From: Patescibacteria group bacterium
GTDB taxonomy: Bacteria > Patescibacteriota > Minisyncoccia > UBA6257 > JAAZHW01
Length of the DNA stretch: 64,000 nucleotides
Direction of reading: 5' to 3'
Assembly (NCBI GenBank): GCA_026415775.1
Contig: JAOAGL010000001.1
Coordinates: 270,233-334,232, forward strand
In this document: in pieces, positions 5,257 to 44,925 of the stretch
Numbering within the stretch: position 1 is the stretch's first letter
Layout of the letters: every line of letters starts with the position of its first letter
Notes under the pieces: generated by a model
What the model was told of the DNA's origin: nothing
Databases searched by the model: none
What the model saw: only the letters and a program-made list of their open reading frames with translations
Position numbers and translations under genes: made by a program

Positions 5257-5296
5257 TTACTTAACAATCTTGACGATCGTCAAGATTGTTAAGTAA
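5257..5296. promoter_or_regulatory. 40-bp perfect palindrome TTACTTAACAATCTTGACGATCGTCAAGATTGTTAAGTAA, a candidate operator or hairpin
   Basis: Exact reverse-complement symmetry read directly from the sequence. Lies 110 bp upstream of the 5406 ORF. A second near-identical copy is at 6018-6051. Confidence 0.5.
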
Positions 5297-5405: not shown

Positions 5406-5987
5406 ATGCCAAGAGAAACAATTACTTTTAAAATTTTTGAAATTTTATCAGACGGAGCTAAAACGATGGATAATTTAATGTTTATCTTTTTTAACGGTTA
5501 TCGCCGTTCTTATAAACAAGCTCTAAAACAACGATGGCAGAAATATATAGAGTCAAAAAAGAAAGAGGATTTAAAAAAGATAAAGAACAATTTTTACGTA
5601 TTATTAAATAGATTAGAAAAACAAGGTTTTATTATAAAAAAGAAAGATAAAACGCAGAAAAAGAATTTATGGTTGCTTACCCCTGCTGGTAGAAAAAAGG
5701 CAAAAATGTTAATTGCTCAAACCAATTTTTTATTTGATTATCCTCATGAAAATGATGGAAAATTAAGGATTATTATTTTTGATATTCCAGAAAAAGAACG
5801 GTTTAAGCGCAATTGGTTAAGAGCAATACTTACTTATTTAGATTTTAAAATGCTTCAAAAAAGCGTGTGGATTGGTACTAATAAGATTCCTGAACGTTTT
5901 ATTTATGATTTGAAAAAATTTAACGTTTTGCCTTATGTTCATATTTTTGAAGTGAGCCAGAGCGGTACAATTGAAACAAAAAAATAA
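5406..5987 (+). CDS. putative transcriptional regulator with an N-terminal winged-helix-like region and a C-terminal Cas2/PaaX_C-like domain
   Basis: C-terminal 'LRIIIFDIPEKERFKRNWLRAILTYLDFKMLQKSVWI' fits the Cas2/VapD-like pattern (hhhhFD..R..L...L..F..LQ.SVW). The N-terminal segment (..FYVLLNRLEKQGFIIKKK..LWLLTPAGRKKAK) looks like a wHTH wing. Assignment is from motif recall only. Confidence 0.35.
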   Translation: MPRETITFKIFEILSDGAKTMDNLMFIFFNGYRRSYKQALKQRWQKYIESKKKEDLKKIKNNFYVLLNRLEKQGFIIKKKDKTQKKNLWLLTPAGRKKAKMLIAQTNFLFDYPHENDGKLRIIIFDIPEKERFKRNWLRAILTYLDFKMLQKSVWIGTNKIPERFIYDLKKFNVLPYVHIFEVSQSGTIETKK

Positions 5988-6017: not shown

Positions 6018-6051
6018 CTTAACTTTCTTGACGATCGTCAGAAAAGTTAAG
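6018..6051. promoter_or_regulatory. second copy (imperfect) of the palindrome, CTTAACTTTCTTGACGATCGTCAGAAAAGTTAAG
   Basis: Shares the core CTTGACGATCGTCA and the CTTAAC/GTTAAG arms with the 5257-5296 palindrome. Lies between the 5406 ORF and the rpsP promoter. Confidence 0.45.
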
Positions 6052-7177: not shown

Positions 7178-7262
7178 ACCCTTACAACCCAAAATAAATA
7201 CTTTAATTTCTAACTCATTTTCAGTTTATTTATCCACAACCCCTCCATTCTTGACAATTTTT

Positions 7263-7271
7263 GTGTTATAA
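7263..7271 (+). promoter_or_regulatory. extended -10 element TGTTATAAT upstream of the giant pilin-like gene
   Basis: TGnTATAAT. The same 9-mer recurs upstream of ruvB (18780-18788) and the dedA-like gene (56985-56993). The nearby TTGACA (7251-7256) is too close (10-nt spacer) to serve as a -35. Confidence 0.35.
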
Positions 7272-7324
7272 TATTTTTGAATGGGATTAAAACGCTTATT
7301 TTAAGCAATTATTTTAAAAATTTT

Positions 7325-10300
7325 ATGTCATTTTTTGATAAAAAAATTAGTTCCAAAGCATTCACCTTAATTGAAATTTTAATCTACACAGCAATTTTTG
7401 GCGTTGTGGCTGCTGGTATTATCGGTGTTGCGTGGAACATCACGCGTCTTCACACAACCCAAATTGCTTCTAATGAAATTGATGAAAATTTGCGTTATGT
7501 AATGAATTTAGTAAATTCTAAAGTTCGTGAGGCTTCACTGATTGTACAGGCAAGTGGAACGACTTTAATTTTGCGGATGCCCGATTCACTAAAAAGTCCT
7601 ACAACATTTTCTTTAAACAATGGCACTTTATACATTCAAGAAGGAAGCGCTGATCCTGTAGCAATTACTTCCAATCGTGTTGAGGTTACTTCTTTGAATT
7701 TTGAATATATAAGCGTTGCTGGTAGTAAGGGTGGCGTGCGAGTTAATATTGCGATGGCATACAAAGAGCAGCCAGGTATTGCTTCGCGTGAATACATCAC
7801 AACAGTTACTAAGGTTAATGCCATCGTTTTTGATTCAGACATTATACCAGATGTAACTAATTCAAGAAGTGTTGGTATTAATACGGCGCAATGGAAGGAT
7901 GGTTATTTTTCTAGAAATGTAATAGTTGGCGGCGATGTTTCATCAACCGGTTTTATTATCGGTGGAGCTGGTCTTTGTATGGGAACTGATTGTCGTACTT
8001 CTTGGGGTCAGGTTACAGGCGTTACTGGTTCCGGCACACAAAATTATATTGCTAAATGGACCTCTTCTGGCTCTATTGGTAATTCGCAAATTTTTGATAA
8101 TGGGACTAATGTGGGTATTGGGACGACAAGTCCCAATGTAAAATTACATATTTCGAATACTACGGCAGGAATAAACGAACTATTGCGTTTAGCTTATAAC
8201 AATTCAGTGGGTTCAGGAGCGAGATTATCATGGTGGGCAGGAGATACCGTGTCAGAAACGGGGCGGATAGAAAACTTTGTAGATGCAGGAAATCAAGTGA
8301 GTTTAAGATTTTATACTTATAATTCTGGACTCGGTGAAAGAATGCGCATTACAGCTGCTGGTAATGTTGGTATCGGCACAGCATCTCCTCCTTCTCTTCT
8401 TTCCGTCGGCGCATCATCGCAATTTCAAGTTAATTCTTCTGGTGATATAGTTAAAATCAAAAACCTTACTTATTCCTGGCCATCCTCTCATGCTGTCGGA
8501 TTTCTTAAAAACGACGGCTCGGGTAATTTAACTTGGGATACTTCTGGCGCAGTTGGCGGCACAGGTTCAGCTGGCCAAGTGGCTTTTTGGTCCTCAACAA
8601 CAACGATAACAGGCGATAGCGGTTTTTATTGGGATAATACTAACAAAAGATTAGGTTTAGGCACAACTGCACCTGGTCAACGTTTATCTGTTGTTGGCGA
8701 TATTGGTTTATCTGGTGGCGATCGTTTTATTGGCACAACCGACGCCTATGGTTTAAGCATCAGAACAAACAATACCAATAGAATTTTCATTTCCGCTGAT
8801 GGTAATGTCGGTATTGGTACTACTTCGCCAAGCAGAACATTAGATGTTCATGGTATTGCGCAATTACGCGGCGCTGCCGGCGGCACTGGTTTATTTGTTG
8901 ATTCTGGTGGTAATGTGGGTATTGGGACGACAAGTCCAGCATTTAAACTTGATGTTAGTGGATCAGCTCGAGTTACCAATGTATTTAAAGAAGGCAATTG
9001 GCGTCACGTACTTTCTTCTTATGTTACTGCTACCCCTACTAATGGTGTTTTGTTAACTACCGCCATTCCTTATGATGGTGTTACAAATAGAGGAATGCAT
9101 GGTATTCGGGTGATGGGATATGCCTTTGGAGAGTCTAGACCTATAGATTTTGAAGTGGTATTTTATCTTTATACTTCTGGTTTTAATAGCTACGGCTGGA
9201 CAAATTATGGAGCTCATGACCCAGGAACAATTAAACTTTCTTATGAAGGTAATGTTGTTAAATTATGGTGGTCTTCTAAAGTTTATTATGCTAGTTATGA
9301 AATATTTACAAAAAGTCATGGAGCACTTGGCCAAAACGATTCATGGTTTGAGGGGTGGACCATCACTGATGCAGTAGCTCCTACTTCAAATGTTGTAGAT
9401 GTTCCATATCGAAATGCAATGCCTTATGGACTTGCAATGCGCGGCAATATTAATTTAAATGGAAATTGGCTTTCTGGAGACGGAGATAATGAGGGTGTTT
9501 ATATAAATGCTTCAGGTAATGTTGGTATTGGAGCAACAAGTCCATCATATCGATTAGATGTAGCTGGTGATATTAATACATCAGGTTATTTTAGAGGTAA
9601 TGGTTCCCAAATAACTAATTTAAATGCTTCTAATTTAACAAGTGGTATTGTGCCTGCAGCACGACTTTCATCTACGCAAGCTTATTATACTTTAGATCCG
9701 ATTTTTCCAAAAACAAATCAGCAACATACAACTTTAGGAGGAGCGACAATTGGTGAAATTGCTTTGTCGTCTGCTTATGTTCAAAATAAATTGCAATTTG
9801 TTTTACCTTATAGTATTGAATATACAACCAATGGAACAACCTGGAATACTTATCCTGATCCAGTTGATAGTGATACAGTTAAAAAAATGTTTTTGGGTTA
9901 TAACGCCGGGGGTAAAATTTATCTCCGTGGTCCCAATAATGGAAATTGGCTTGGTTTGCGCATAACATGGCAGGCACCTTCGTATTATTTCTTGAATTAT
10001 TTCTATACTTACATGAGTACTTCAGGACATCAATGTGCAATTACAATAGAAAAGACATATGGAGATGATTTGAATACATGGATTACTGTTGCTACAACGA
10101 CTAATTTTTCTAGTTGGCCTGGGCATACTCTTGTTCCTCATTCGAATATTGCGTGGAATCCGACACCTACTCCAGGTACTCATTCTAAATATGTACGAGT
10201 GACTTTTACTCCCACATGGAATGGATCTTATCCTAATAATAATATTGATATTTATGCAATAGATTGGTTTGGAGAATATCCAGCTAATATCAAACCCATG

Positions 10301-13300
10301 CAATTATTTACTTGGGATTTTGATAAAAATGTTACATTTGATAATGGATTAAGAATGCCTGGTAGTATTGGTATTGGGACAACAAATCCTATTCAAAAAT
10401 TACACGTCGAAGGAAATGCTTATATTTCAGGAAGTGTCGGCATTGGCACGACAAATCCAAATACTTTACTCGATGTAAGGGGAAGAATTAACACGCCAGA
10501 AATAGCTTTTCGTAATAGTGACGGAGGTGATGATAGTGACCCTTATCGTTTAAGAAAATATCAATTTGGTTCAAGCTCTAATGAACTTCAGCTTCAGTTA
10601 AATGATGATAGTGATGAAAGATTTGCTATTTATGGTAATTCTTGTAGTGGTTATAGTTGTGGTGAATATAGTGGTAATCTTTATCATTTCTTTAAAGCAG
10701 ATGGAACGGCTTATCATGCTGGCAACGTCGGTATCGGCACAACAAGTCCCTCATATAAATTAGACGTCTCAGGAGATATTCGTGCTACAGGAACTATTTA
10801 TGGAACATTCTCTGGTACAATCAATGCTGCTAATGTTTCAGCCGGTTCATTTGGTGCTAACACTGGTGGTGGCAATTATTCCTTCCCAGCGAATCTGACT
10901 GTTAGTGGAGCTGTTGGTATTGGGACGACGAATCCGGGGGTGAAATTAGATGTAGTAGGGGGATATATTAGAACTTGGGGTGGAGAGTTTATATCATATA
11001 AAGAGAATCCTGGAGGAATTTTGGGGGCTTTAGCTTTGGAAGGAAAAAATGCTTCCTCAACCAATCCTTATATGAAAAGATGGACTTTGTTTAATATGCA
11101 AGATTATTCTGGTGTGAATGGTTTTGTCATCTATGAATATTATGATGCAAATAATGATGGTAGTTATTGTAATGATGGCGGAGCATGTAATATGAGATTT
11201 ATTATTGCAAGTGGGGGTAATGTTGGTATCGGAACTGCCACTCCTGCTTATCCATTAGATGTAGTAGGTGATGTTAGATTCTCAGGCACTCTTCAAGGTG
11301 GTTCAGTGCCATGGGCTCGTTTAACTTCTTTCCCATCAGCTTGTTCTGCTGGCAATGCAGTAACTGGATTAGGCTCAACTCTTACTTGTTCGCCATTTAT
11401 GACTAATCCAATGACTACATTGGGTGATATCATCTACGGCGGTTCCAGTGGCACACCAACCCGTTTAGCTGGCTCAGCTGGTTTTCTTAAATCAACTGGC
11501 GCTGCTGCGCCTTCTTGGAGCGCTGTTAATCTTGCTTCCTCTGATGTAACAGGCACTTTAGCAGTAACTAGTGGCGGTACAGGTTTATCTTCTATTGCGG
11601 CTGGCTCTATTCTTTATGCTACTTCTTCTAATACTTTAATTGCCATTGCTCCAACTGCCGCTAATCAGGTTTTAAGGTCAACCGCTGCTAATGCCTTGCA
11701 ATTTGGCGCATTAGTTGCTGCTGATATTCCTAATTTAGACGCTAGTAAAATTACTTCAGGAACTTTTGGTATTGCTCGTGGCGGTACTAACTCAACTGCT
11801 ACTCCCACTGCTGGCGCTGTAGCTTATGGTACTGGTTCAGCTTATGCTTTTACTGCTGCTGGTACAGCTAACCAAGTTTTAATTTCAGGCGGCACCAGCA
11901 CTCCCACCTGGTCTAACATCGCTTCATTACTCACTCAAGGCACTAACATCACTATTTCTGGCACCACCAATGCCACTATTGCCACGGTTAACAACCCAAC
12001 TTTCTCTACTTCTGTTTCAACACCATTATTAACCAGCTCAGGCGCTATTGCTATTAAACCCGGTTCTAATTCAACCACCGCTATTCAATTACAAAATACC
12101 GGTGGTACAGCCATTGTTAATGTTGATACAACGAATAGTAGAGTAGGTATTAATAATGCAAGTCCCAGCTATGCTTTAGATATTACAGGCGATATCCGCG
12201 TTACTGGTGCCATCATTGGTACAGTTTCAACAACAATTTCGGCAACCAATGTTTCAGCCGGCGCTTTTGGTTCTAACACTGGTGGCGGCAATTATTCTTT
12301 CCCAGCCAGAGTAGGAATAGGCACAACGTCACCAAGTACAGATTTGCATATAAAAGTTTCAAGCGGTGATGTGAAAATACAACTGGGTACTCAAGCAAGT
12401 GTTGTGCCAACTACTGGAGGACCAAATAATCCTTCGGCAGCGGTCGATGATTCAAGCAATGGAGGTTCGGCTGTTTGGAGTAATCCAACCAATGTTTATA
12501 CCTCTAATGACGTTTATGCGTCAGTTACAATACCAGCAGGTGTGGATCCAGATTATTATTGGAGCGATTATTTGAAAGCGACGGGTTTTGGATTTTCTCT
12601 TCCTAGCACCGCTAATATTCTTGGGATTAAGGTAGAAATAGAGGCAAAGGCGAGCGTTGCTTCGACATTAACAATAAATGAAGTATTATTAGTTAAATCA
12701 GGTTCAATTGTTGGTAGCAGCAAAAGCGGAGGACTTCTAACTGCATCAGATGCGTACTACTCATTTGGTGATACAACTGATTTGTGGGGAACAACTTGGT
12801 CTTACTCAGATATTAACAATTCCAATTTTGGCGTGGTTGTGAGTGTATTTAATCCTACAACATCAGCAAGAACGGCTTATATAGACCACATTAGAATAAC
12901 CGTTTATTATACCAGCAGTGGAGATGCAGATTGGCAGATGGCAGTATCTTCAACAAGCGGCGCTTTCATTATAAATCCTTTATTTAGTGGTGGAAGAGTG
13001 GGCATTGGAACTACAACGCCATCGGCAACTTTAGATATAAATGGGACTCTTAATGTAAATGGAATTATTCAAGGAAAGTTTTATGATAAATATACTGGCA
13101 GCATTTCCCGCACTTATTCTAGTGGAAATGGAACTTCAAGCTTGAGCACGGGCAAATATTATCCTGATTGGTTCTGTGCCCTATCTAAAGTTGATGCTAC
13201 AGAGTTAGATACTGCTACCGAACATGCTTATTGCACGGTTACTCTCGACGGTAATAATCAGTGGCTTTTAAATGCTGTAATTAGCGGCGTCTCGGATCAA

Positions 13301-13336
13301 ACGGTTTCTTGTAGTATTTATTGCATACGATTATAA
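7325..13336 (+). CDS. giant (~2000 aa) prepilin-leader surface protein with tail-fibre-like 'GNVGIGTTSPxxKLDVxG' repeats
   Basis: Best start is the ATG at 7325 (MSFFDKKISSKA|FTLIEILIYTAIFGVVAAG), a class III/prepilin-type leader. The ORF track's 7277 start is a TTG. The remainder is G/S/T/N-rich with at least 11 repeat copies, two ~50-aa paralogous segments and a Cys-containing C-terminal domain. Confidence 0.6.
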   Translation: MSFFDKKISSKAFTLIEILIYTAIFGVVAAGIIGVAWNITRLHTTQIASNEIDENLRYVMNLVNSKVREASLIVQASGTTLILRMPDSLKSPTTFSLNNGTLYIQEGSADPVAITSNRVEVTSLNFEYISVAGSKGGVRVNIAMAYKEQPGIASREYITTVTKVNAIVFDSDIIPDVTNSRSVGINTAQWKDGYFSRNVIVGGDVSSTGFIIGGAGLCMGTDCRTSWGQVTGVTGSGTQNYIAKWTSSGSIGNSQIFDNGTNVGIGTTSPNVKLHISNTTAGINELLRLAYNNSVGSGARLSWWAGDTVSETGRIENFVDAGNQVSLRFYTYNSGLGERMRITAAGNVGIGTASPPSLLSVGASSQFQVNSSGDIVKIKNLTYSWPSSHAVGFLKNDGSGNLTWDTSGAVGGTGSAGQVAFWSSTTTITGDSGFYWDNTNKRLGLGTTAPGQRLSVVGDIGLSGGDRFIGTTDAYGLSIRTNNTNRIFISADGNVGIGTTSPSRTLDVHGIAQLRGAAGGTGLFVDSGGNVGIGTTSPAFKLDVSGSARVTNVFKEGNWRHVLSSYVTATPTNGVLLTTAIPYDGVTNRGMHGIRVMGYAFGESRPIDFEVVFYLYTSGFNSYGWTNYGAHDPGTIKLSYEGNVVKLWWSSKVYYASYEIFTKSHGALGQNDSWFEGWTITDAVAPTSNVVDVPYRNAMPYGLAMRGNINLNGNWLSGDGDNEGVYINASGNVGIGATSPSYRLDVAGDINTSGYFRGNGSQITNLNASNLTSGIVPAARLSSTQAYYTLDPIFPKTNQQHTTLGGATIGEIALSSAYVQNKLQFVLPYSIEYTTNGTTWNTYPDPVDSDTVKKMFLGYNAGGKIYLRGPNNGNWLGLRITWQAPSYYFLNYFYTYMSTSGHQCAITIEKTYGDDLNTWITVATTTNFSSWPGHTLVPHSNIAWNPTPTPGTHSKYVRVTFTPTWNGSYPNNNIDIYAIDWFGEYPANIKPMQLFTWDFDKNVTFDNGLRMPGSIGIGTTNPIQKLHVEGNAYISGSVGIGTTNPNTLLDVRGRINTPEIAFRNSDGGDDSDPYRLRKYQFGSSSNELQLQLNDDSDERFAIYGNSCSGYSCGEYSGNLYHFFKADGTAYHAGNVGIGTTSPSYKLDVSGDIRATGTIYGTFSGTINAANVSAGSFGANTGGGNYSFPANLTVSGAVGIGTTNPGVKLDVVGGYIRTWGGEFISYKENPGGILGALALEGKNASSTNPYMKRWTLFNMQDYSGVNGFVIYEYYDANNDGSYCNDGGACNMRFIIASGGNVGIGTATPAYPLDVVGDVRFSGTLQGGSVPWARLTSFPSACSAGNAVTGLGSTLTCSPFMTNPMTTLGDIIYGGSSGTPTRLAGSAGFLKSTGAAAPSWSAVNLASSDVTGTLAVTSGGTGLSSIAAGSILYATSSNTLIAIAPTAANQVLRSTAANALQFGALVAADIPNLDASKITSGTFGIARGGTNSTATPTAGAVAYGTGSAYAFTAAGTANQVLISGGTSTPTWSNIASLLTQGTNITISGTTNATIATVNNPTFSTSVSTPLLTSSGAIAIKPGSNSTTAIQLQNTGGTAIVNVDTTNSRVGINNASPSYALDITGDIRVTGAIIGTVSTTISATNVSAGAFGSNTGGGNYSFPARVGIGTTSPSTDLHIKVSSGDVKIQLGTQASVVPTTGGPNNPSAAVDDSSNGGSAVWSNPTNVYTSNDVYASVTIPAGVDPDYYWSDYLKATGFGFSLPSTANILGIKVEIEAKASVASTLTINEVLLVKSGSIVGSSKSGGLLTASDAYYSFGDTTDLWGTTWSYSDINNSNFGVVVSVFNPTTSARTAYIDHIRITVYYTSSGDADWQMAVSSTSGAFIINPLFSGGRVGIGTTTPSATLDINGTLNVNGIIQGKFYDKYTGSISRTYSSGNGTSSLSTGKYYPDWFCALSKVDATELDTATEHAYCTVTLDGNNQWLLNAVISGVSDQTVSCSIYCIRL

Positions 13337-13390
13337 AATAAATAAAAAATAATCAATAAATAAAAAATAATCAATAAATAAAAAATAACA
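13337..13390. repeat. 3 tandem copies of the 18-bp AT-rich unit AATAAATAAAAAATAATC (third copy degenerate)
   Basis: Read directly from the sequence, immediately after the stop of the giant ORF. Confidence 0.5.
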
Positions 13391-13425: not shown

Positions 13426-13953
13426 ATGAAAAAAAATACTTTAATAATTATTACAGGACTCATCCTAATAGTAATTATTGGTCTTATCATACTTATTAAG
13501 CCCGCAAGTAAAAATCCGAATCCCACTCCTACATTAAGCGGAGAAAATACTCCGACTAAAGGGGAAATACCCAAAGATGTTAAAGTTTATAATGCTGGTG
13601 AGTCGGCGCCAGAAGGAACAGCCGTGCCAGACAGCGTTTCCGATTATGGGTTGACAAAACTCCGCTCTTTTACGATGAAAATCGAAGATGGCGTTTTTAC
13701 CCCGCAAACCTTTATCTGTTATGAAGGCGAGATGATGAAAATTTGGATTACAGCAATTGATAAAGATTATGATGTTGTTCAGCCAGATAATGGTTTAAAG
13801 TTGATAATTAAAAAAGGCGAAACGAAATTTATTGAATCGCAAATGAATGATATCGGAAAATTTACTTTTTATTGTGAATCTTGCGGGGGGTTAAATTCAA
13901 AAGCAGTGGGTTATATGATAGTTGTTCCTAAGCCAGTCAAAAAATCACAATAA
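13426..13953 (+). CDS. membrane-anchored protein with a C-terminal cupredoxin-like domain (inferred)
   Basis: N-terminal TM helix (LIIITGLILIVIIGLIILI). The C-terminal ~100 aa follows a plastocyanin-like pattern (..VFTPQTF.C.EGE...W.....D..V.....G...I.KGET..F.....G.FTFYCESCGG....GYMIVV). Canonical His ligand positions are not conserved. Confidence 0.3.
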   Translation: MKKNTLIIITGLILIVIIGLIILIKPASKNPNPTPTLSGENTPTKGEIPKDVKVYNAGESAPEGTAVPDSVSDYGLTKLRSFTMKIEDGVFTPQTFICYEGEMMKIWITAIDKDYDVVQPDNGLKLIIKKGETKFIESQMNDIGKFTFYCESCGGLNSKAVGYMIVVPKPVKKSQ

Positions 13954-14036: not shown

Positions 14037-14456
14037 ATGGAAAAAGTCAAAAAAACAATTCTCATTCTTATTTTAGTAATTATTTTAATTATTATTATTG
14101 TGGGAATTGCAGCTTTGATTATTAAAGGAGGCAGCGTAAAAAATCTTTTTAGTAATCAAGCGAGTGGAAAATATCATTTAGTATATGTTCAGACAGGAAA
14201 TGGAAGCGCTAGTTATTATGGGCAGATTATTAAAGAGGGAGAAAATTATGTTTTATTGAAGGACCCCGGATACATCAATATTCAAGCCGCTCAGAAAGAA
14301 GGAGAGCAGCCGCAAGTAAGTTTTGCTTTAATGAAAGACGAATTTTTCAAGCCAATTTCAGAGATGAAAATTTATAAGAGCAATATTGTTTTTATTCAGC
14401 AGTTGGCTGATGATTCTCCAATAGTAAACTTTTACAAAAATCAGTTAAGTAAATAG
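14037..14456 (+). CDS. hypothetical N-terminally membrane-anchored protein
   Basis: Single N-terminal TM (ILILILVIILIIIIVGIAALII) followed by a ~110-aa soluble domain. No recognisable motif. Confidence 0.4.
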   Translation: MEKVKKTILILILVIILIIIIVGIAALIIKGGSVKNLFSNQASGKYHLVYVQTGNGSASYYGQIIKEGENYVLLKDPGYINIQAAQKEGEQPQVSFALMKDEFFKPISEMKIYKSNIVFIQQLADDSPIVNFYKNQLSK

Positions 14457-14468
14457 GGCAAATTGAAA

Positions 14469-14519
14469 AATCCCCCAAATGCAGACTTAAACTAATTGTT
14501 AGTTTGTATTTGGGGGATT
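14469..14519 (+). promoter_or_regulatory. two-level hairpin (12-bp outer stem AATCCCCCAAAT/ATTTGGGGGATT, inner stem AAACTAA/TTAGTTT) ending 11 nt before the GGDEF gene start
   Basis: Perfect complementarity read from the sequence. No clear U-tract follows, so it is either a weak terminator for the upstream gene or an element governing GGDEF translation. Confidence 0.4.
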
Positions 14520-14530
14520 GTTTATAAATT

Positions 14531-15115
14531 ATGTCACCATCAACAAAATCAGAAATTGAAAAATTGAGAAAAGAAATTATAGCCTTGAAAAGAATAGCCA
14601 TTAAAGATCCTTTAACAGGGTTATATAATAGACGGGGATTATTGGAGCAGGGAGAGAAATTTTTGAAAATGATGGAGCGTTTAAGAGAAAATAAATTTCC
14701 AGAAAGTGGCAATTCTTTTAATTTAGGTGTTATTTTAATTGATTTAGATGATTTTAAGAAAATCAATGATGTTTATGGACATAAAACTGGTGATGAAGTG
14801 CTAAAAAAAATTGCGGAATTGCTGGAAGAATCTTTGCGTAAATCAGATATTATTAGTCGGTGGGGAGGCGATGAATTTGCAATATTAATTTTTGATATAA
14901 ACAAACCTATTTTAACAAAAATTGCCGGACGAATTCAGGAGAAAATTTGCAACCACACTTTTTTGGTTAAAAAGCGAAAAATCAATCTCACTATTAGCTT
15001 GGGCGCAACTCTTTTTTCCAATGTTAATCTGGATTTAGAGAAAGAAATAGAAAAAGCCGATAAAGCGATGTATCGCGCTAAAAAGCGAGGGAAAAATAAT
15101 TTTGTTATTATATAG
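14531..15115 (+). CDS. stand-alone GGDEF-domain diguanylate cyclase
   Basis: 'DPLTGLYNRRGL', 'ILIDLDDFKKINDVYGHKTGDEVL', an intact active site 'RWGGDEFAIL' and an I-site RxxD at the canonical spacing (RKSD-IISRW-GGDEF). Only a ~25-aa coiled-coil N-terminus, with no sensor domain. Confidence 0.8.
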   Translation: MSPSTKSEIEKLRKEIIALKRIAIKDPLTGLYNRRGLLEQGEKFLKMMERLRENKFPESGNSFNLGVILIDLDDFKKINDVYGHKTGDEVLKKIAELLEESLRKSDIISRWGGDEFAILIFDINKPILTKIAGRIQEKICNHTFLVKKRKINLTISLGATLFSNVNLDLEKEIEKADKAMYRAKKRGKNNFVII

Positions 15116-15142
15116 TAAAGGGGGTCTTAATGAAGTTAATTT

Positions 15143-16594
15143 ATGCAAAAGAAAATTAAGCGTTTAATGTTTGTTATCGCGATTCTGCTTTTTTTGTTTA
15201 TGGCGGTAATGTTTATTGTTTATTCTTGGGGATATCGCTGGAATCAAAAAGAGTGGAAATTTGTTAAAACAGGAGGACTATACTTGCGAGTTTATAATAG
15301 CAAACCAGAAATTTATTTGAATAATCAATATCTTAAAAAAGCTACGCCGGGACTTTTAAGCAACGGCATTTTTTTATCTAATTTAATTCCTGATAATTAC
15401 TTATTAAAAATTAGCAAACCAAATTATTTTTCTTGGGAGAAAGAAGTTGTAATTGAACCACAAATGGTGACGACCTTTTCTTCTATTGTTTTATTACCAA
15501 AAAATCCTTTATCAAAAAGTATCTATTCTTCTAATGAAACATCTTCTGTTGAAATTTTAGATATTTTACCCTTGAAAAATGGTAAAGAACTAATTATTCA
15601 AGCGATTGAAGAAGGAACTTCAACTAGCGCCGTGCTTTTTATTTATAATTTTAATAATCAAAACCAATTGGAAATTTATAGAAAGAAAATTAATAAAGGA
15701 GAAAATTTCAATTTAATTTCTAATTTAATAATAGCTGATAATGACGCTAATCAAATTATTTTTCCGGTTGTTGTTAACAAAACAACTAATTTTTATTTGT
15801 GGGAGAGAATAAATCCGGAAAATATAAAGAATATCTCGCAAACAATTATTTCACAATTCAAATTTAAAAACCCTATTAAAAAAATTGATTTTTATCCCAA
15901 TACCGAAAATAAATATATTATTTTAACCGGCACGGATTTAATGCTTGTTGATTTGAACAAAAACGAAATGAAAAAAATATTTTTAGACGTAAAAGATTTT
16001 GCGAGAAAGGATTACAATATGTTGGTTATAAATAATCAAGGCGCGGCATTTAGTTATAATTTGATTTTAGATACTAGCTCGCCATTGGGGATTTTAGAAC
16101 TAGAAAAAGAAAATAGCATCAAGAAAATTCAAATATCGCCAAAGAATAATTATTATAGCGTACAATTAAATAACGGAGATTTATATCTTTTAAAAAGCGG
16201 CGAAGAAATAACGCTTCTTAAATCAATATCTTTATTTGCTTTTTCAAATGATGACAAAAAATTGGCTTATATAAATAAAGATAACGAATTACATGTCAAA
16301 TATTTAACGGATTTCACTGGTGATTTTTTACAAAAAAAGGGAGAAGATGTTTTAATAAAAAAATTAACTGAGCCCATAAATAATTTAATCTGTCATTCTG
16401 ATTTAAATCATTTAATTTATCAAAGCGAGAATAAAATTTATTTTGCGGAAATTGATGTGCGCGATGCGGTGAATATTTTTGAATTAAATTTTAACGGAAA
16501 TAATTTTTATTTAGAAGGAGGGAAAAATGGAACTATTTTTACTTGGAATGAAAAGACAATCAAAAGAATAGATTTGCTTTATGAACAGCTATAA
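15143..16594 (+). CDS. membrane-anchored PEGA-domain protein with a large beta-rich C-terminal region
   Basis: N-terminal TM (LMFVIAILLFLFMAVMFIVY). 'GGLYLRVYNSKPEIYLNNQYLKKATPGLLSNGIFLSNLIPDNYLLKISKPNYFSWEKEVVIEP' fits the PEGA pattern (L.V.S.P..A.IYL.G...G.TP..L..L..G.Y.L.ISK.GY). Confidence 0.45.
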   Translation: MQKKIKRLMFVIAILLFLFMAVMFIVYSWGYRWNQKEWKFVKTGGLYLRVYNSKPEIYLNNQYLKKATPGLLSNGIFLSNLIPDNYLLKISKPNYFSWEKEVVIEPQMVTTFSSIVLLPKNPLSKSIYSSNETSSVEILDILPLKNGKELIIQAIEEGTSTSAVLFIYNFNNQNQLEIYRKKINKGENFNLISNLIIADNDANQIIFPVVVNKTTNFYLWERINPENIKNISQTIISQFKFKNPIKKIDFYPNTENKYIILTGTDLMLVDLNKNEMKKIFLDVKDFARKDYNMLVINNQGAAFSYNLILDTSSPLGILELEKENSIKKIQISPKNNYYSVQLNNGDLYLLKSGEEITLLKSISLFAFSNDDKKLAYINKDNELHVKYLTDFTGDFLQKKGEDVLIKKLTEPINNLICHSDLNHLIYQSENKIYFAEIDVRDAVNIFELNFNGNNFYLEGGKNGTIFTWNEKTIKRIDLLYEQL

Positions 16595-16640: not shown

Positions 16641-18320
16641 ATGCAACAAAATGATAAAAATGCACAATTAGCTGAGATGATTAAAAAGGCGCAACTGGCT
16701 GCTGAAGAAAGAGAGGCAGAGCGATTAGCTAATTCTTTGGGTTTGAAATATGGAGATTTAACAAAAATATCTGCTCAAACAGACGCGCTGGAATTGATTA
16801 ATGAAGAAGAAGCCAAGGTCGCTCTTTGCGCTCCTTTTTTGCTGAAACAAAAAACTATTTTATTAGCTTGTAAAAACCCTGCTTTGGAGGCAACTAAAAA
16901 TGTAATAGAAGGTTTGAGAAGTAAAGGTTATGATTTGGATATTTATGTTGTTTCTTTAAGGTCGTTAGAGAATCTTTGGCAAGGTTATCGCTTTATTGTG
17001 GGTAGAAAAAAAGAAATTACTGGCGGTATAGAAGTAGACAAAGACCATTTGGCAAGCATAATGAATGAAGTTAAAACGACCTCATCTTTAAAAGAAAAAA
17101 TACAAAATTTTGATAGTCCTTATATTTCTCAAATTTTTGAAATTATTATTGCTGGAGCAATAGCGATGGATGCTTCGGATATTCATATTGAACCAGAAGA
17201 AAGCGGCATTCGTTTGAGATATCGTTTGGATGGCGTTTTGCAAGATATTTCAGCATTAAATCAGCATCATTATCGCTCGATTATTTCAAGAATTAAATTA
17301 TTGGGCGGTATGAAAATCAATGTTCATACAGCGCCGCAAGATGGAAGGTTCACAATTAAAACTTATGATGTTGATATCGAGGTGCGTGTTTCTATTATTC
17401 CGAGCGCTTATGGTGAAACGGTTGTAATGCGTTTGCTTAATCCCAAAAACATTCAATTGGATTTAAAAAATTTAGGTTTTCGTGAAGATGATTTGGCCAT
17501 TATGGAGGAGCAAATTGGGCGCCCCAATGGTATTATTTTGAATACTGGTCCAACAGGGTCAGGTAAAACAACGACCTTATACGCTTTTTTAAGACGTATT
17601 TATAATCCAGAAATTAAGATTATTACTGTTGAAGACCCCATTGAATACCACTTGGAAGGAATAACCCAGACGCAAGTAAATCCAACGCGTAACTATACCT
17701 TTGCTTCTGGTTTGCGGTCAATTTTGCGTCAAGACCCCGATGTAATTTTAGTGGGTGAGATTCGCGATAATGAAACAGCAGAGATTGCTATGCATGCTGC
17801 TTTAACGGGCCATCTCGTTTTTTCTACTTTGCATACTAATGATGCTTGTGGTACAATTCCTCGGTTATTGGATATGAATATCCAGCCAGCAATTCTGGCG
17901 CCAGCATTAAATCTGGCTATTGCTCAGCGTTTGGTTAGAAAATTATGCCAACACTGTAAAGAAGCTGTGGAATTAACGCCAGAACAAGCTGACAAAATTA
18001 GAAAGATGGTTGAAAAAATGCCCGAAAGAGTTAAGAAGCCACAATTGGGGGATAAGATTGTTATTTATAAATCTAAAGGTTGCGAGCATTGCAATGGAAC
18101 AGGTTATAAAGGAAGAGTGGCGGTAGCAGAATTGCTGGTGGTTGATAGAGATATTCAAAATTTAATTACGCGCTCAGAGAAAATGCCGACGGCGGCGGAA
18201 ATTAAAGATATGGCTATTCAAAAAGGAATGACAACAATGGAGGATGATGCGATTTTAAAAATTTTGGATGGTATTACAAGTTTATCTGAGGCGGAAAATG
18301 TTTTGGGTAAACTTCTATAG
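16641..18320 (+). CDS. PilB/GspE-family type IV filament assembly ATPase (paralog 1)
   Basis: Walker A 'GPTGSGKTTT', Asp/His boxes, and a tetracysteine motif CQHCKE...CEHCNGTGYKGR. 559 aa. Confidence 0.85.
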   Translation: MQQNDKNAQLAEMIKKAQLAAEEREAERLANSLGLKYGDLTKISAQTDALELINEEEAKVALCAPFLLKQKTILLACKNPALEATKNVIEGLRSKGYDLDIYVVSLRSLENLWQGYRFIVGRKKEITGGIEVDKDHLASIMNEVKTTSSLKEKIQNFDSPYISQIFEIIIAGAIAMDASDIHIEPEESGIRLRYRLDGVLQDISALNQHHYRSIISRIKLLGGMKINVHTAPQDGRFTIKTYDVDIEVRVSIIPSAYGETVVMRLLNPKNIQLDLKNLGFREDDLAIMEEQIGRPNGIILNTGPTGSGKTTTLYAFLRRIYNPEIKIITVEDPIEYHLEGITQTQVNPTRNYTFASGLRSILRQDPDVILVGEIRDNETAEIAMHAALTGHLVFSTLHTNDACGTIPRLLDMNIQPAILAPALNLAIAQRLVRKLCQHCKEAVELTPEQADKIRKMVEKMPERVKKPQLGDKIVIYKSKGCEHCNGTGYKGRVAVAELLVVDRDIQNLITRSEKMPTAAEIKDMAIQKGMTTMEDDAILKILDGITSLSEAENVLGKLL

Positions 18321-18332
18321 TTTTTGAAAATT

Positions 18333-18360
18333 AAATCCGCCTCAATAATGAGGCGGATTT
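18333..18360 (+). terminator. hairpin terminator (AAATCCGCCTCA / loop ATAA / TGAGGCGGATTT)
   Basis: Perfect 12-bp stem directly after the PilB stop. A weak T-rich tail follows. Confidence 0.55.
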
Positions 18361-18386
18361 AATTTAGATAAAATTATAAAAAAATA

Positions 18387-18802: not shown

Positions 18803-19816
18803 ATGTCAAAAAATATTTTTAAAGCTGATCCGATTTTGGACAATGCTCTACGTCCTAAAAAATGGAATGATTTTGTTGGCCAAGAAAAGGCAAAAGAAAA
18901 TTTACGAATAATGATTGAAGCGGCGCGAAAAAGAGCCGAAGCAATAGATCATTTGCTTTTTTATGGTTGCGCTGGTTTAGGGAAAACAACGCTTGCATAT
19001 TTAATCGCTCAGGAATTAGAAGCTAATTTGAAAATCACTTCAGGGCCAGCAATTGAAAAAGCAGCAGACCTCGCTTCGCTCTTAGCTAATTTAGACGAAG
19101 GAGATGTTTTGTTTATTGATGAAATACATCGTTTGAATAAAATGATTGAAGAAGTTTTATATTCTGCGATGGAATCAAGGGTTTTAAATTTAGTTTTAGG
19201 AAAAAAATCTTCAACGCGCGCAGTTCAAATTGATTTGCCGCCGTTTACTTTAATTGGAGCAACTACACGTATAGGATTATTATCTAGTCCTTTGCGTTCA
19301 CGTTTTGGAGCAATTTTTAAATTGGATTTTTATGAAGTTGAAGATATAAAGAAAATTTTGTCTAACAATGCGCGATTGCTAAATATTGGAATTACTGACA
19401 AAGCCAAAGAAATTTTAGCAAAAGCTAGCAGAGCTACGCCGCGAGTGGCAAATCGTTTATTAAAGCGTAGCCGAGATTTTGCTACGGTGGAAGGAAAAAA
19501 CGTCATTGATGAAGAAATTGCTCAAAAAACTTTGAAATTATTTGATATTGATGAATGGGGATTAGAATCAACTGACCGCCGTATTTTAGAAGTAATTATT
19601 GACCGTTTTAATGGCGGGCCAGTTGGTATAAAAGCTTTAGCGGCGGCCACAAACGAGGAAGAAGATACTATTGAGGAAATTTATGAGCCTTATTTAATGC
19701 GACTTGGATTATTAGAAAGAACCACACGCGGTCGTATTGTAAGCGAAGCGGGTTATAAACATTTAAATCTTTATCATTTAGCTCAAAAATCAGAGCAAAA
19801 GAAATTAATTGAATAA
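18803..19816 (+). CDS. ruvB: Holliday junction branch migration helicase RuvB
   Basis: 'LRPKKWNDFVGQEKAKENL', Walker A 'GCAGLGKTTLA', sensor and arginine-finger regions typical of RuvB. 337 aa. Confidence 0.9.
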   Translation: MSKNIFKADPILDNALRPKKWNDFVGQEKAKENLRIMIEAARKRAEAIDHLLFYGCAGLGKTTLAYLIAQELEANLKITSGPAIEKAADLASLLANLDEGDVLFIDEIHRLNKMIEEVLYSAMESRVLNLVLGKKSSTRAVQIDLPPFTLIGATTRIGLLSSPLRSRFGAIFKLDFYEVEDIKKILSNNARLLNIGITDKAKEILAKASRATPRVANRLLKRSRDFATVEGKNVIDEEIAQKTLKLFDIDEWGLESTDRRILEVIIDRFNGGPVGIKALAAATNEEEDTIEEIYEPYLMRLGLLERTTRGRIVSEAGYKHLNLYHLAQKSEQKKLIE

Positions 19817-19830
19817 AAAAGAATTTTAGT

Positions 19831-21159
19831 ATGAGGAATTTTAATTCTTTTACTAAGATTTCTTTTTTGATAATCATTTTTACTTTAATTTTTATTTCAA
19901 AGGCCCGTGCGACAGGACCAATAATTATTAATGAAATAATGTATGATTTGGAGGGGGCGGATAGTGGTTTGGAATGGGTAGAGTTGAAAAATATTTCCAG
20001 CGAGCCAGTTGATTTAACTGGTTGGAAATTTAATGACGGGAGCAATCATCTATTAAATATTCCTCCAAAAAATGGTGGACAAGGAGGGATGGTAATTTCG
20101 CCTCAAGGCTTTGCTATTTTAGCTGATAAAGCGGATTTATTTTTACAAAATCATCCGAATTTTTTAGGAACAGTGATAGACACAGCAATGAGTTTAAATA
20201 ATACTGCTGCTACTCTTAGATTAATTGATAATAACGGCAATATTGTTGAAGAAGCTTCTTATATTAAAACGCAAGGAGGGAATGGTAATGGTTTTTCTTT
20301 GGAAAGAGTTAGTGATAATGTTTCTGAATTTTGTGAATCTAATATTTTAGGCGGTACGCCTGGCCAGGAAAATAATTTTAATTGCAATAAAGTGAAAGAA
20401 ATCAAATCTTCGCCAACACTTTCACCAACTAATGGCAATAATGAATTATTGACTTCTTCGCCAAGTTTTATAATCCAAGACGAAGACAATCAATCAAGCG
20501 ACCAAAGTATAATACCAACACCCACTGCTACCCCTATAAGAGTGCGATTAATTATAAATGAATTTTTACCTAATCCGATTGGTAATGACCAAGAAGGGGA
20601 ATGGATTGAAATTTTTAATGATAGCGAGATAGACATTCCATTAAGAGGGTGGCGACTAGAGGATGCAAGCGGACAAAAATATTATTTTAAGGACGAAATT
20701 ATTCAGCCAAAAAACTTTTTAGTTTTAACGTATAAAACTACCAAAATTACTTTAAATAATAATGGAGAAACATTAAGTTTATATTCGCCAAATAATGAAT
20801 TAGCCTTTCAAATCAGTTATTCGGGCAATGCCGAAGAAGGATTTTCTTATGCACGAGCTGCGGCGAATAATTGGAAATGGACTTCAATTGTAACACCAGG
20901 CAAAGTTAATCAGTTTGATAAAGAAGAGGTTGCTGATAAAAATATTCAACAAAAATTTGATATTGAAGCTATTGTTGAGAATAATTCAGAAAATAATCAA
21001 AGAAGCGTAACTCTATCAACATCGCAGAGCAACCCTCCCGCTATTAATCAAAAAAATCAAAGTAGTAATTTCTCGGAAAAAATTATTTTGTTAATAATTG
21101 GCGTTGGCGTAGTTTTTAGTATTGCCTCAGCAATTTTTATTAAAAAAGTTTTACCCTAA
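19831..21159 (+). CDS. surface protein with two lamin-tail-domain (LTD) repeats and a C-terminal TM anchor
   Basis: N-terminal signal/TM. Two LTD-like segments: 'IIINEIMYDLEGADSGLEWVELKNISSEPVDLTGWKFNDGS' and 'LIINEFLPNPIGNDQEGEWIEIFNDSEIDIPLRGWRLEDASG'. C-terminal hydrophobic helix (ILLIIGVGVVFSIASAIFI). Confidence 0.55.
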   Translation: MRNFNSFTKISFLIIIFTLIFISKARATGPIIINEIMYDLEGADSGLEWVELKNISSEPVDLTGWKFNDGSNHLLNIPPKNGGQGGMVISPQGFAILADKADLFLQNHPNFLGTVIDTAMSLNNTAATLRLIDNNGNIVEEASYIKTQGGNGNGFSLERVSDNVSEFCESNILGGTPGQENNFNCNKVKEIKSSPTLSPTNGNNELLTSSPSFIIQDEDNQSSDQSIIPTPTATPIRVRLIINEFLPNPIGNDQEGEWIEIFNDSEIDIPLRGWRLEDASGQKYYFKDEIIQPKNFLVLTYKTTKITLNNNGETLSLYSPNNELAFQISYSGNAEEGFSYARAAANNWKWTSIVTPGKVNQFDKEEVADKNIQQKFDIEAIVENNSENNQRSVTLSTSQSNPPAINQKNQSSNFSEKIILLIIGVGVVFSIASAIFIKKVLP

Positions 21160-21160
21160 A

Positions 21161-23743: not shown

Positions 23744-23752
23744 AGCTTATTA

Positions 23753-24229: not shown

Positions 24230-24276
24230 AAATTTTTAACTTGTATTTTCCGAATATTTTTGTTTAAATATAAACG

Positions 24277-40508: not shown

Positions 40509-40536
40509 TCTGTAAAAAATATTATAATTTAAATAT

Positions 40537-41070: not shown

Positions 41071-41077
41071 TCAAACT

Positions 41078-41680: not shown

Positions 41681-41681
41681 T

Positions 41682-42044: not shown

Positions 42045-42051
42045 TTTTACA

Positions 42052-43812: not shown

Positions 43813-43848
43813 AATTGGTTTATAATATAAAATAAAATAGAAAAACAT

Positions 43849-44922: not shown

Positions 44923-44925
44923 AAT

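Follow-up and report, generated by a model that had tools for sequence, protein, structure and literature searches.

Our analysis of a 64,000-nucleotide (64-kb) stretch of Patescibacteria DNA, here called the window, points to a 194-aa protein that would be a working, GTP-specific diguanylate cyclase of a minimal 'stalk helix + GGDEF' type. We consider this reading probable, together with the mechanism, setting and target proposed for it below. The enzyme by itself is unsurprising, a textbook case of a GGDEF domain on a short stalk that GenBank already labels accordingly. Some value lies in the context, a conserved block in which a giant pilin, a cyclase and a second PilB-type ATPase occur together and no c-di-GMP receptor can be recognised. 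Host-dependent Patescibacteria of ultra-small size rely on type IV pili, and to our knowledge almost nothing has been published on second-messenger signalling in this group. The block offers a concrete, testable entry point, with a small enzyme that is expected to express readily and a candidate target two genes away. The gene and its parts are as follows.

14531-15115, plus strand: helix + GGDEF gene for a putative diguanylate cyclase of 194 aa (open reading frame; Pfam and TIGRFAM matches; AlphaFold2 and Foldseek)
14537-14602, plus strand: N-terminal helix, residues 3-24, SEIEKLRKEIIALKRIAI (DSSP on the AlphaFold2 model)
14606-14617, plus strand: DxLT junction motif D26-P-L-T29, where the GGDEF domain begins (D26, L28 and T29 invariant in alignment A1)
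14741-14794, plus strand: substrate- and metal-binding stretch D71-L-D73-D-F-K76-K-I-N79-D80...G87-D88 (BLASTP to PleD; family invariants)
14837-14848, plus strand: primary inhibitory I-site R103-K-S-D106, RxxD (sequence; R103 and D106 invariant in the family)
14864-14878, plus strand: active-site motif G112-G-D-E-F116 (sequence; G112, G113 and E115 invariant in the family)

The protein is an exact match to MCX8015966.1 in GenBank, which is labelled "GGDEF domain-containing protein" and comes from a Patescibacteria MAG. The Pfam GGDEF profile (PF00990) matched residues 24-190 with an E-value of 5.5e-43 and 147 bits against a cut-off of 23.8, and positions 2-161 of the 161 in the profile were covered. 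TIGR00254 matched residues 19-192 (E 4.2e-47, 160 bits against a cut-off of 37.4). The AlphaFold2 monomer model of the protein has a pLDDT of 84, and the top 50 Foldseek matches to this model were all solved GGDEF-domain structures, nearly all of them diguanylate cyclases. The I-site and active site read ...LRKSDIISRWGGDEFAIL..., that is R103-K-S-D106, five residues (IISRW) and then G112-G-D-E-F116, and this RxxD-to-GGDEF distance is the canonical I-site spacing. The open reading frame with its RWGGDEFAIL-type motif and RxxD, as described in an earlier reading made from the sequence alone (the sequence-only reading), was thus confirmed by the sequence and by both profiles.

Residue equivalences with PleD were obtained by BLASTP of the protein against the PleD GGDEF domain, and family conservation was judged on 25 members (alignment A1). 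The PleD numbering used here fits R359, D362, R390, K442 and R446 of the literature. In this numbering PleD D327, D329, K332, N335, D336 and D344 correspond to D71, D73, K76, N79, D80 and D88. The PleD-equivalent catalytic and I-site set was complete (D71, N79, D88, R103, D106, R110, GGDEF 112-116, R134, K184 and K188), and its residues were invariant or nearly so across the 25 members, with D71 and D88 invariant and N79 kept in at least 90%. K184 corresponds to PleD K442, and K188 stands in place of PleD R446; the replacement is conservative, and all family members share it. An alignment check for lost essential residues, suggested by the sequence-only reading, found the DxLT and DxDxFK motifs intact and R446 to Lys as the only replacement. 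The claim of a catalytically plausible, product-inhibited cyclase is therefore well matched by the predicted active site and I-site. The Mg-binding role given there to the DxLT Asp had to be corrected: the metal ligands are the Asp of the DxDxFK strand (PleD D327, here D71) and the acidic residue of GGDEF.

About 23 residues lie N-terminal to the GGDEF domain and form a single helix (residues 3-24) in the AlphaFold2 model, in agreement with the earlier description of a short coiled-coil N-terminus and no input domain. Its hydrophobic residues I9, L12, I16, L19 and A23 are spaced like the a/d positions of heptads. The family alignment shows no variation at K11 and L12 and almost none at E8 and E15. 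The helix, which is short and basic (KLRKEIIALKR), is presumed to be a coiled-coil 'stalk' for dimerisation. As it spans only about 2.5 heptads, stable self-dimerisation is uncertain, and the modelled heptad pattern suggests a dimer but does not prove one. Overall, the protein is probably an ordinary-looking, active c-di-GMP-making enzyme without a sensor domain, as judged from its sequence.

Several characterised enzymes resemble this architecture. The best full-length superposition was with the coiled coil + GGDEF structure of DgcB from Caulobacter crescentus (6TTR; TMq 0.83, TMt 0.84, 194 columns), which has the same helix-then-GGDEF arrangement at almost equal length and was crystallised with c-di-GMP bound; it differs in having only 22% identity and in being, by its entry title, a fragment of DgcB, whereas the 194 residues here are the whole protein. 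SiaD of Pseudomonas aeruginosa, solved with SiaC (7E6G), also combines a stalk helix with a GGDEF domain and was the second-best structural match. The SiaD model was the best-scoring specific-enzyme NCBIfam model aligning across the stalk, but it scored 146 against a cut-off of 290 bits, and SiaABC partner genes are lacking here. GCN4-WspR (3I5C) was also among the best full-length helix + GGDEF analogues. The closest solved sequence was the GGDEF domain of TM1788 from Thermotoga maritima (4URS/4URG; E 1.4e-27, about 36% identity), which shares RxxD-x5-GGDEF and the DPLTGL.NRR start but is an isolated domain of 167-188 residues with no N-terminal helix and no pilus context. In PleD (C. crescentus, 1W25/2V0N), residues D327, N335, D344, R359xxD362, R366, GGEEF, R390 and K442 map one-to-one, with GGEEF in place of GGDEF and R446 in place of Lys. 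PleD is switched by two receiver domains, whereas the 194-aa protein has none.

Short proteins of this kind proved to be frequent. Among the 120 best homologues 98 are no longer than 235 aa, and of these short homologues 97 keep the RxxD-x5-GG[DE]E pattern and 96 keep Asp at the position of PleD D344. Strict conservation of the active site and I-site extends across orthologues of 96% to about 40% identity. The conservation of I-site, GG[DE]E and Asp in the short homologues points to catalysis and feedback both being under purifying selection. Hypr GGDEF enzymes, which produce cGAMP, are said to carry Ser or Thr in place of this guanine-specifying Asp (attributed to Hallberg and colleagues, 2016); identity as such a cGAMP synthase was rejected, since the 194-aa protein, like nearly all of the short homologues, retains the Asp (D88). 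By sequence, short helix + GGDEF proteins are common in Patescibacteria, and the gene is therefore no oddity in a reduced genome. The suggestion that c-di-GMP signalling is out of the ordinary for so minimal a genome is not supported, and diguanylate cyclases in ultra-small MAGs have already been mentioned in passing in one paper (PMC9938205). The remoter short Patescibacteria GGDEF genes stand in unrelated contexts, beside peptidase M48, DnaG or diacylglycerol-kinase-like genes. A profile search of genome contigs with the family alignment and a search of metagenome contigs with the single protein gave, among the matches listed, mostly unrelated proteobacterial or other cyclases, and the only orthologous locus among them was L091. 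The synteny of relatives was obtained via exact-protein look-ups.

The GGDEF gene lies inside a cluster of genes for pilus-like and membrane proteins, of which the other members are the following.

7277-13336, plus strand: giant pilin-like protein, 2019-aa open reading frame, first gene of the cluster (PF07963 N_methyl match)
13426-13953, plus strand: 175-aa protein conserved in the cluster, with a weak cupredoxin-like match and one TM helix
14037-14456, plus strand: 139-aa protein with one TM helix, conserved cluster member directly upstream of a hairpin
15143-16594, plus strand: 483-aa protein, beta-rich in its exterior part, with a TM helix at the N-terminus
16641-18320, plus strand: paralogue of PilB/GspE-type assembly ATPases, 559 aa, with a tetracysteine motif (PF00437, E 1.8e-121)

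The giant pilin-like protein carries an N-terminal prepilin methylation motif (PF07963), and the true start of its gene is likely the ATG at 7325. The 559-aa ATPase is the sole cytoplasmic protein of the cluster besides the cyclase, while the remaining proteins have an N-terminal TM helix with their bulk predicted outside. We compared this arrangement with related loci, numbered with the prefix L. L084-L087 and L091 have giant pilin homologues upstream of their GGDEF gene, the 139-aa protein has homologues with 53-74% identity in L083-L087 and L091, and the ATPase shows 64-90% identity across the orthologous loci. The 483-aa protein is lineage-specific, with 15 homologues only, all of them hypothetical Patescibacteria proteins, and its gene always lies 3′ of the GGDEF gene. 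In six loci (L083, L085, L086, L087, L091 and L171), in which the identity of the GGDEF protein ranges from 43 to 89%, the genes run as here from the giant pilin through the small TM proteins to the GGDEF protein, and on to the membrane protein of about 480 aa and the PilB-type (T2SSE) ATPase. The packing is tight in L087, where 5 and 2 nt separate the GGDEF gene from the cluster genes on either side. Although the upstream context varies, with PadR, S16 and DJ-1 in the window versus FtsH, PseudoU and PIN in L086 and L087, the GGDEF gene remains enclosed in an unbroken block that extends from giant pilin to ATPase. On the downstream side, RuvB, an LTD protein, PolA, TsaE and MurA are collinear in the same relatives.

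From its placement beside pilus and adhesin genes, the cyclase had been suggested to control surface attachment. Because its place within the giant-pilin/PilB-type ATPase cluster is kept down to 43% identity, a link to pili is supported, and a functional connection is plausible from gene order. This argument is weakened by the downstream housekeeping genes, which are equally collinear, so that the order may also reflect shared ancestry.

The window was then considered for further components of a c-di-GMP circuit. In Pfam scans that took in every open reading frame of 90 aa or more in the 64 kb, EAL, HD-GYP and PilZ domains were absent, and regular expressions for the corresponding motifs gave no match in any of its six frames, which agrees with the sequence-only reading; the section 18803-25554 was covered through gene tables. 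At gathering score, Rfam covariance models of the c-di-GMP-I and c-di-GMP-II riboswitches matched nothing in the 64 kb. The adjoining 10 kb on the left side of the window hold only repair and housekeeping genes, with no EAL, HD-GYP, PilZ or riboswitch. A c-di-GMP receptor of the canonical kinds is thus not visible, as far as motifs and profiles can tell, in the window.

Pilus ATPases controlled through an MshEN domain (Vibrio cholerae MshE, 5HTL; Thermus thermophilus PilF) offer a comparison, since here likewise a cyclase lies near a PilB/GspE-type ATPase. MshEN consists of two tandem 24-residue motifs, RLGxx(L/V/I)(L/V/I)xxG(L/V/I)(L/V/I)xxxxLxxxLxxQ, with 5 residues between them (PMC5013675), and the GSPII-A domain of PilF, which has one degenerate motif, does not bind c-di-GMP (PMC11731258). 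PF05157 ('MshEN') matched the main PilB of the window (42052-43812) with 36.7 bits, above the cut-off of 23.1, and the 559-aa ATPase with 19.1 bits, below it. Both matches were rejected as receptor evidence, because the aligned region is the alpha/beta subdomain and not the c-di-GMP-binding helices. The 559-aa ATPase has a truncated N-terminal domain, with only 32 residues ahead of the alpha/beta subdomain, and N-terminal alignments showed that the first helical hairpin is missing in all five orthologues. No 24-mer within its first 90 residues reached 7 of the 11 positions of the relaxed MshEN motif, and in this the cyclase-adjacent ATPase differs from MshE and PilF. At its truncated N-terminus the ATPase family keeps an acidic helix, AEEREAERLA. 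The main PilB is homologous to MshEN over residues 5-116 (against 5HTL, E 3.5e-4) and keeps the 24+5+24-residue register of the four-helix bundle (residues 6-29 and 35-58). Each half has 8 of the 11 relaxed positions, a level also reached by unrelated segments, compared with 11 of 11 in MshE itself, and Gly3 of the motif is replaced by Leu or Glu in both halves. The main PilB thus carries recognisable MshEN c-di-GMP motifs only in degenerate form. A search for MshEN domains, recommended by the sequence-only reading, therefore gave within the window a negative answer for the adjacent ATPase and an equivocal one for the main PilB.

Two hairpins lie within the cluster region.

14469-14519, plus strand: two-level hairpin in the gap that separates the 139-aa gene from the GGDEF gene (folding; conservation in relatives)
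18328-18365, plus strand: 17-bp hairpin directly 3′ of the ATPase gene, likely the operon end (fold; inverted repeat)

The first was found exactly where it had been reported, starting 13 nt past the upstream stop codon and ending 11 nt ahead of the ATG. Its lower stem of 18-19 bp is separated by an internal loop of 2 nt from an upper stem of 3 bp, which is capped by a 5-nt loop, and the structure is unique within the window. Its folding energy is -30.7 kcal/mol (z = -7.5), and none of 200 shuffled sequences folded as well. It is conserved in four relatives (L171, L083, L172 and L090) with one compensatory AU to CG pair, four one-sided compatible changes and no lower-stem pair broken, and is absent from orthologues at 47% identity or less. 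The hairpin 3′ of the ATPase gene has an energy of -29.5 kcal/mol (z = -8.4), and equivalents follow the ATPase gene in L083, L085, L086 and L087. The hairpin before the GGDEF gene is preceded by an A-tract, has a C5/G5 core of five G-C pairs at the foot of its stem and is followed by a U-rich tail, GAUUGUUUAU, and this A-tract, GC-core and U-rich build is common to it and to the hairpins after the ATPase gene, here and in the four relatives that have them. The tail is U-rich but interrupted, and a consensus terminator scan made no call. The remaining intergenic gaps of the pilus unit are unstructured. With a permissive E-value, Rfam gave for positions 14380-14620 only sub-threshold matches to unrelated families, mostly eukaryotic miRNA or snoRNA precursors, which we set aside as a generic resemblance between hairpins. 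The stretch from the hairpin to the ATG yielded no promoter of its own for the GGDEF gene; its single -10-like hexamer, TATAAA (14523-14528), was rejected, as it has no acceptable -35 and transcription would begin after the ATG. An upstream ATG, annotated as the start in P0004 and L083, was likewise rejected because in the window it does not share the reading frame of the gene.

We propose the following mechanism. The conserved amphipathic N-terminal helix would form a short parallel coiled coil that pairs two GGDEF domains, and the two bound GTP would condense to c-di-GMP. Output would be capped by the product at the RxxD I-site, through R103, D106 and R134, the equivalent of PleD R390. Since there is no sensor domain, the amount of enzyme would be set mainly by expression. 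The transcription unit would run from a promoter before the giant pilin gene to the hairpin after the PilB-type ATPase gene. The hairpin at 14469-14519 would most likely act as a leaky intrinsic terminator or 3′-end stabiliser, holding the part with the GGDEF gene, the 483-aa protein gene and the ATPase gene below the level of the upstream structural genes. A less certain step is that c-di-GMP probably tunes the assembly of a specialised pilus/adhesin module. It is only a tentative and rather unlikely proposal that this happens via an undescribed site, or via contact between the basic stalk and the acidic helix of the ATPase, with the display of a pilin-adhesin of about 2000 residues and the hold on a host cell as output. 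Should the whole genome also be without EAL and HD-GYP, product inhibition and dilution would be the only brakes of the circuit.

For the hairpin, a leaky terminator appears more likely than the gate on translation of the GGDEF gene that had been suggested earlier, and which we regard as improbable. The structure is very stable and lies 11 nt before the AUG, within the region covered by the 30S subunit; the sole G-rich, Shine-Dalgarno-like run upstream (GGGGG, 14-19 nt before the AUG) is inside it, and the single-sequence MFE fold has a weak outer helix touching the UG of the start codon. That helix does not appear, however, when four relatives are folded to a consensus, the hairpin leaves the AUG and the 11 A/U-rich nt before it unpaired, and the GGGGG run is too distant from the AUG for a normal Shine-Dalgarno sequence. 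Only about 4 of 60 genes here have a Shine-Dalgarno-like motif, so that initiation is essentially independent of it and there is no ribosome-binding sequence to hide. The loss of the hairpin in the more distant orthologues and the use of same-style hairpins at the operon end also speak against a gate. Processing by RNase III, which would uncouple the stability of the structural and regulatory RNA parts, we consider slightly less probable still. The nearly perfect stem of about 22 bp has the size recognised by RNase III, and a gene for this enzyme is present in the window (2211-2939), but equally long hairpins at the operon end suggest a general terminator style.

The reading as a working cyclase tied to the pilus module also has rivals. 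The cyclase may be a general housekeeping source of c-di-GMP or serve another target, its position in the cluster being inherited gene order; we judge this unlikely, though with an appreciable chance of being right. The equal collinearity of RuvB to MurA, the other short Patescibacteria GGDEF genes beside unrelated neighbours and the adjacent ATPase without a c-di-GMP receptor motif all fit it, whereas the block that stays intact while its upstream context varies, and the tight packing in L087, argue against it. Alternatively, the protein could be a c-di-GMP-binding or partner-activated adaptor whose helix docks on a partner, as SiaC does on the SiaD stalk, with activity switched by protein contact, for instance by the acidic N-terminal helix of the neighbouring ATPase. 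The SiaD-SiaC complex as second-best structural match (TMq 0.81), the alignment of the SiaD model over stalk and domain, and the pairing of a short basic stalk with the conserved acidic ATPase helix would suit such a role. It would nevertheless be purely our inference, the low score of the SiaD model indicates that the protein and SiaD are not orthologues, and the neighbourhood lacks a SiaC-like gene, so we think the adaptor distinctly improbable. An orphan remnant without a working pathway, finally, would agree with the absence of a phosphodiesterase or canonical receptor from the approximately 74 kb examined. We hold it to be highly improbable, because the strict conservation of the active site and I-site, in orthologues as in nearly all short homologues, is not the pattern of a decaying gene.

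The 194-aa product of the ORF at 14531-15115, a putative diguanylate cyclase, matched the Pfam GGDEF profile end to end (residues 24-190, E 5.5e-43, 147 bits), and the TIGR00254 match spans residues 19-192. In the sequence (LRKSD IISRW GGDEF AIL), the five residues IISRW separate R103xxD106 from G112GDEF116, as in a canonical I-site. An AlphaFold2 model with 25 family members as input (mean pLDDT 84) consists of a single helix at residues 3-24 and a normal GGDEF fold. The top 50 Foldseek matches in the PDB were all solved GGDEF-domain structures, nearly throughout diguanylate cyclases, and the best full-length matches were the helix plus GGDEF constructs DgcB 6TTR, GCN4-WspR 3I5C and SiaD 7E6G. 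Since all sequence-defined features are present, we count the protein as a true GGDEF family member; profile matches, motif spacing and model agree with the sequence-only reading, which had described a cyclase with intact motifs behind a short helical N-terminus. It falls outside the SiaD, PleD and DgcN equivalogs, because all scores were far below the cut-offs.

For residue mapping the protein was aligned to the GGDEF domain of PleD, numbered such that R359, D362, R390, K442 and R446 fall on the positions given in the literature. PleD residues D327, K332, N335, D344, R366, R390, K442 and R446 align with D71, K76, N79, D88, R110, R134, K184 and K188, respectively, R359xxD362 with R103xxD106, and GGEEF with GGDEF at 112-116. 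The sole change among the mapped residues is Arg to Lys at the R446 position, and K188 is invariant across the alignment of 25 members. Naming the Asp of DxLT as a Mg ligand was an error: DxLT (D26-T29) marks the junction where the domain begins, and the metal ligands are D71 and the acidic residue of GGDEF. Both sites are intact. As the guanine-specifying Asp is retained in the sequence, a Hypr/cGAMP-type enzyme was ruled out.

The annotation already exists: an identical GenBank entry, MCX8015966.1, bears the title 'GGDEF domain-containing protein [Patescibacteria group bacterium]' and comes from a 492-kb contig, and a 322-kb JGI contig carries the protein too. Of the best 120 database relatives, 98 do not exceed 235 aa, and organism labels, where given, are mostly Minisyncoccia, Paceibacterota, Patescibacteria, Colwellbacteria or Yanofskybacteria. 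Within these 98 short relatives RxxD-x5-GG[DE]E is kept in 97 and the D344-equivalent Asp in 96, with a median of 24 residues before DxLT. From these lengths, labels and retained motifs, short 'stalk + GGDEF' proteins are common and well conserved in the Patescibacteria radiation. This speaks against the earlier view that such signalling is unusual in a reduced genome, and likewise against an orphan remnant. Sequence comparison indicates that the complete GGDEF domain is under purifying selection. The protein is thus a known kind of enzyme, annotated beforehand, and would probably work as other minimal stalk + GGDEF cyclases do. The searchable literature yielded no study dealing with c-di-GMP circuitry in these organisms; it only mentions in passing that sediment-attached ultra-small MAGs are enriched in diguanylate cyclase genes (PMC9938205).

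Every window ORF of at least 90 aa was assigned by Pfam or gene tables. The GGDEF gene lies in a block that is separate from a complete type IV pilus cluster:

7277-13336: giant pilin-like protein with a prepilin N-methylation motif
between the giant gene and the 139-aa gene: 175-aa protein, single TM
directly before the hairpin: 139-aa protein, single TM
14469-14519: two-level hairpin
14531-15115, forward strand: GGDEF gene, ORF of 194 aa
after the GGDEF gene: 483-aa protein, N-terminal TM helix
16641-18320: 559-aa PilB/GspE-type ATPase with a tetracysteine motif
18328-18365: very strong hairpin after the ATPase gene
39468-47574: type IV pilus cluster (PilM, PilN, PilO, main PilB, PilT, PilC, pilin, prepilin peptidase)

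Orthologous loci were found via exact-protein look-ups. The order giant protein, small TM proteins, GGDEF, protein of about 480 aa and ATPase is kept at L171, L083, L085, L086, L091 and L087, with GGDEF identities of 89, 80, 54, 47, 44 and 43%, respectively; on two short contigs at 65-66% identity, the homologue of the 483-aa protein adjoins the GGDEF gene. Since the upstream context varies by lineage, a functional block is favoured. Shared ancestry would explain part of the conservation, because the downstream genes for RuvB, an LTD protein, PolA, TsaE and MurA are as collinear in the relatives compared as the block itself. More distant short GGDEF genes lie elsewhere, beside a peptidase M48, DnaG or diacylglycerol-kinase-like gene. 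A modestly new point is the conserved pairing, in a host-dependent lineage, of the cyclase with a giant pilin and a PilB paralogue lacking MshEN.

In the relative with 54% identity (L084, L085) the cluster is disturbed (L084 6088-7059; L085 4800-5240 and 6168-6596). One assembly carries an rve transposase insertion; a long intergenic stretch with repeated 'GTCATTCTGAG' units and GC-rich palindromes precedes the GGDEF gene, a Trp-repressor-like gene separates it from the gene of about 490 aa, and the ATPase ORF is broken in L084. At L103, L104, L119 and L168, the few loci with a T2SSE-like ORF among the metagenome matches listed, a longer GGDEF-containing ORF adjoins or overlaps this ATPase ORF; this arrangement of cyclase and ATPase may also occur in other lineages.

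The hairpin lies at 14469-14519 exactly as claimed and folds at -30.7 kcal/mol (z = -7.5), with no second copy in the window. Relatives at 89, 80 and 65% protein identity keep it, and the sequence just upstream diverges. Substitutions comprise one compensatory AU to CG pair and four one-sided compatible changes; the 18-bp lower stem has zero broken pairs in four sequences, which is supportive, not statistical. The hairpin is missing in L087 (intergenic gap of 5 nt), L091 and L086, its absence coinciding with a short intergenic gap. The suggested translational gate seems unlikely. Initiation appears essentially SD-independent in this organism, because only about 4 of 60 window genes carry an SD-like motif in the 30 nt before the start, and leaders are A/T-rich. 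Neither the A/U-rich 11 nt nor the AUG is paired by the hairpin, a weak outer helix from one fold not being part of the consensus. Hairpins built in the same way (A-rich 5′ base, G/C core, U-rich 3′ side) come after the block's last gene in this genome and in four relatives, and elsewhere in the block the intergenic gaps are unstructured. No promoter fits between hairpin and ATG. The hairpin is most simply read as a leaky terminator or 3′-end stabiliser, which would lower expression of the GGDEF, 483-aa and ATPase genes compared with the structural genes. A reasonable alternative is that RNase III processes the stem of about 22 bp, an rnc gene being present at 2211-2939.

A very strong long hairpin directly follows the cluster ATPase gene in every relative (L083 5091-5145; L085 10772-10820; L086 13985-14013; L087 13780-13839); sequences vary, and the pattern suggests a terminator style typical of the lineage, with A- and U-tracts inside the stem. 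One of the few good SD-like motifs, AAAGGGGGT (15118-15126), is followed after 3 nt by an out-of-frame ATG (15130), whose mini-ORF of 9 codons overlaps the beginning of the 483-aa gene (start at 15143; window 15118-15159).

EAL, HD-GYP and PilZ domains were absent from the 64-kb window by Pfam on ORFs of at least 90 aa and by regexes, as had been noted, and also from the 10 kb to its left; no c-di-GMP riboswitch was found in the window. The ATPase is the sole cytoplasmic neighbour of the cyclase, because the remaining cluster proteins have an N-terminal TM helix and their bulk is predicted to be extracellular. MshEN consists of two 24-residue motifs, RLGxxhhxxGhhxxxxLxxxLxxQ, with a 5-residue joint (PMC5013675). 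By this definition we found no canonical reception in the adjacent 559-aa ATPase, because in this protein and four orthologues, with only about 32 residues ahead of the alpha/beta subdomain, the first helical hairpin is missing and the motif is unmatched. The main PilB (42052-43812) is homologous to MshEN (PDB 5HTL) over residues 5-116 and retains the exact 24+5+24 register (6-29 and 35-58). Each half reaches 8 of 11 relaxed positions with Gly3 substituted, as do unrelated segments, whereas MshE reaches 11 of 11. Substitutions at the key Arg, Gly and Gln residues make the region look like a degenerate site. In PilF, the GSPII-A domain carries one degenerate motif and fails to bind c-di-GMP (PMC11731258). 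The main PilB may at best be a doubtful candidate for canonical reception.

Beyond the complete GGDEF domain, the I-site, the conserved amphipathic N-terminal helix and the conserved pilus/ATPase block placement, which we demonstrate here, we propose that the helix would form a short coiled coil and dimerise the enzyme, which would condense two GTP into c-di-GMP with the I-site capping output. Enzyme level would be governed by transcription through the hairpin, and c-di-GMP would act on the pilus module via a receptor outside the canonical types visible in the window. A reading in which c-di-GMP or the cyclase acts on a pilus ATPase in a novel manner, perhaps in a phosphodiesterase-less genome, seems unlikely.

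Several minor features were observed around the giant pilin-like gene. An extended -10 promoter element, TGTTATAAT (7264-7272), lies just upstream of the called TTG start at 7277. For this 2019-aa ORF the called start is probably wrong; an in-frame ATG at 7325 yields a typical prepilin leader, MSFFDKKISSKA/FTLIEIL (window 7251-7327). Directly past the stop codon, 13337-13388 holds 2.9 copies of a perfect 18-nt tandem repeat, AATAAATAAAAAATAATC. A perfect 40-bp palindrome at 5257-5296 (TTACTTAACAATCTTGACGA/TCGTCAAGATTGTTAAGTAA) and a 34-bp palindrome at 6018-6051 share the core CTTGACGA/TCGTCA and bracket a PadR/PaaX_M-like regulator ORF (5406-5987); they look like the regulator's own operator sites. 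A PaaX_M gene likewise lies just 5′ of the giant-protein cluster in L086. Elsewhere in the window, this small low-GC genome carries two full-length MreB paralogues (25566-26573 and 30371-31423), accompanied by MreC, likely MreD and PBP2.
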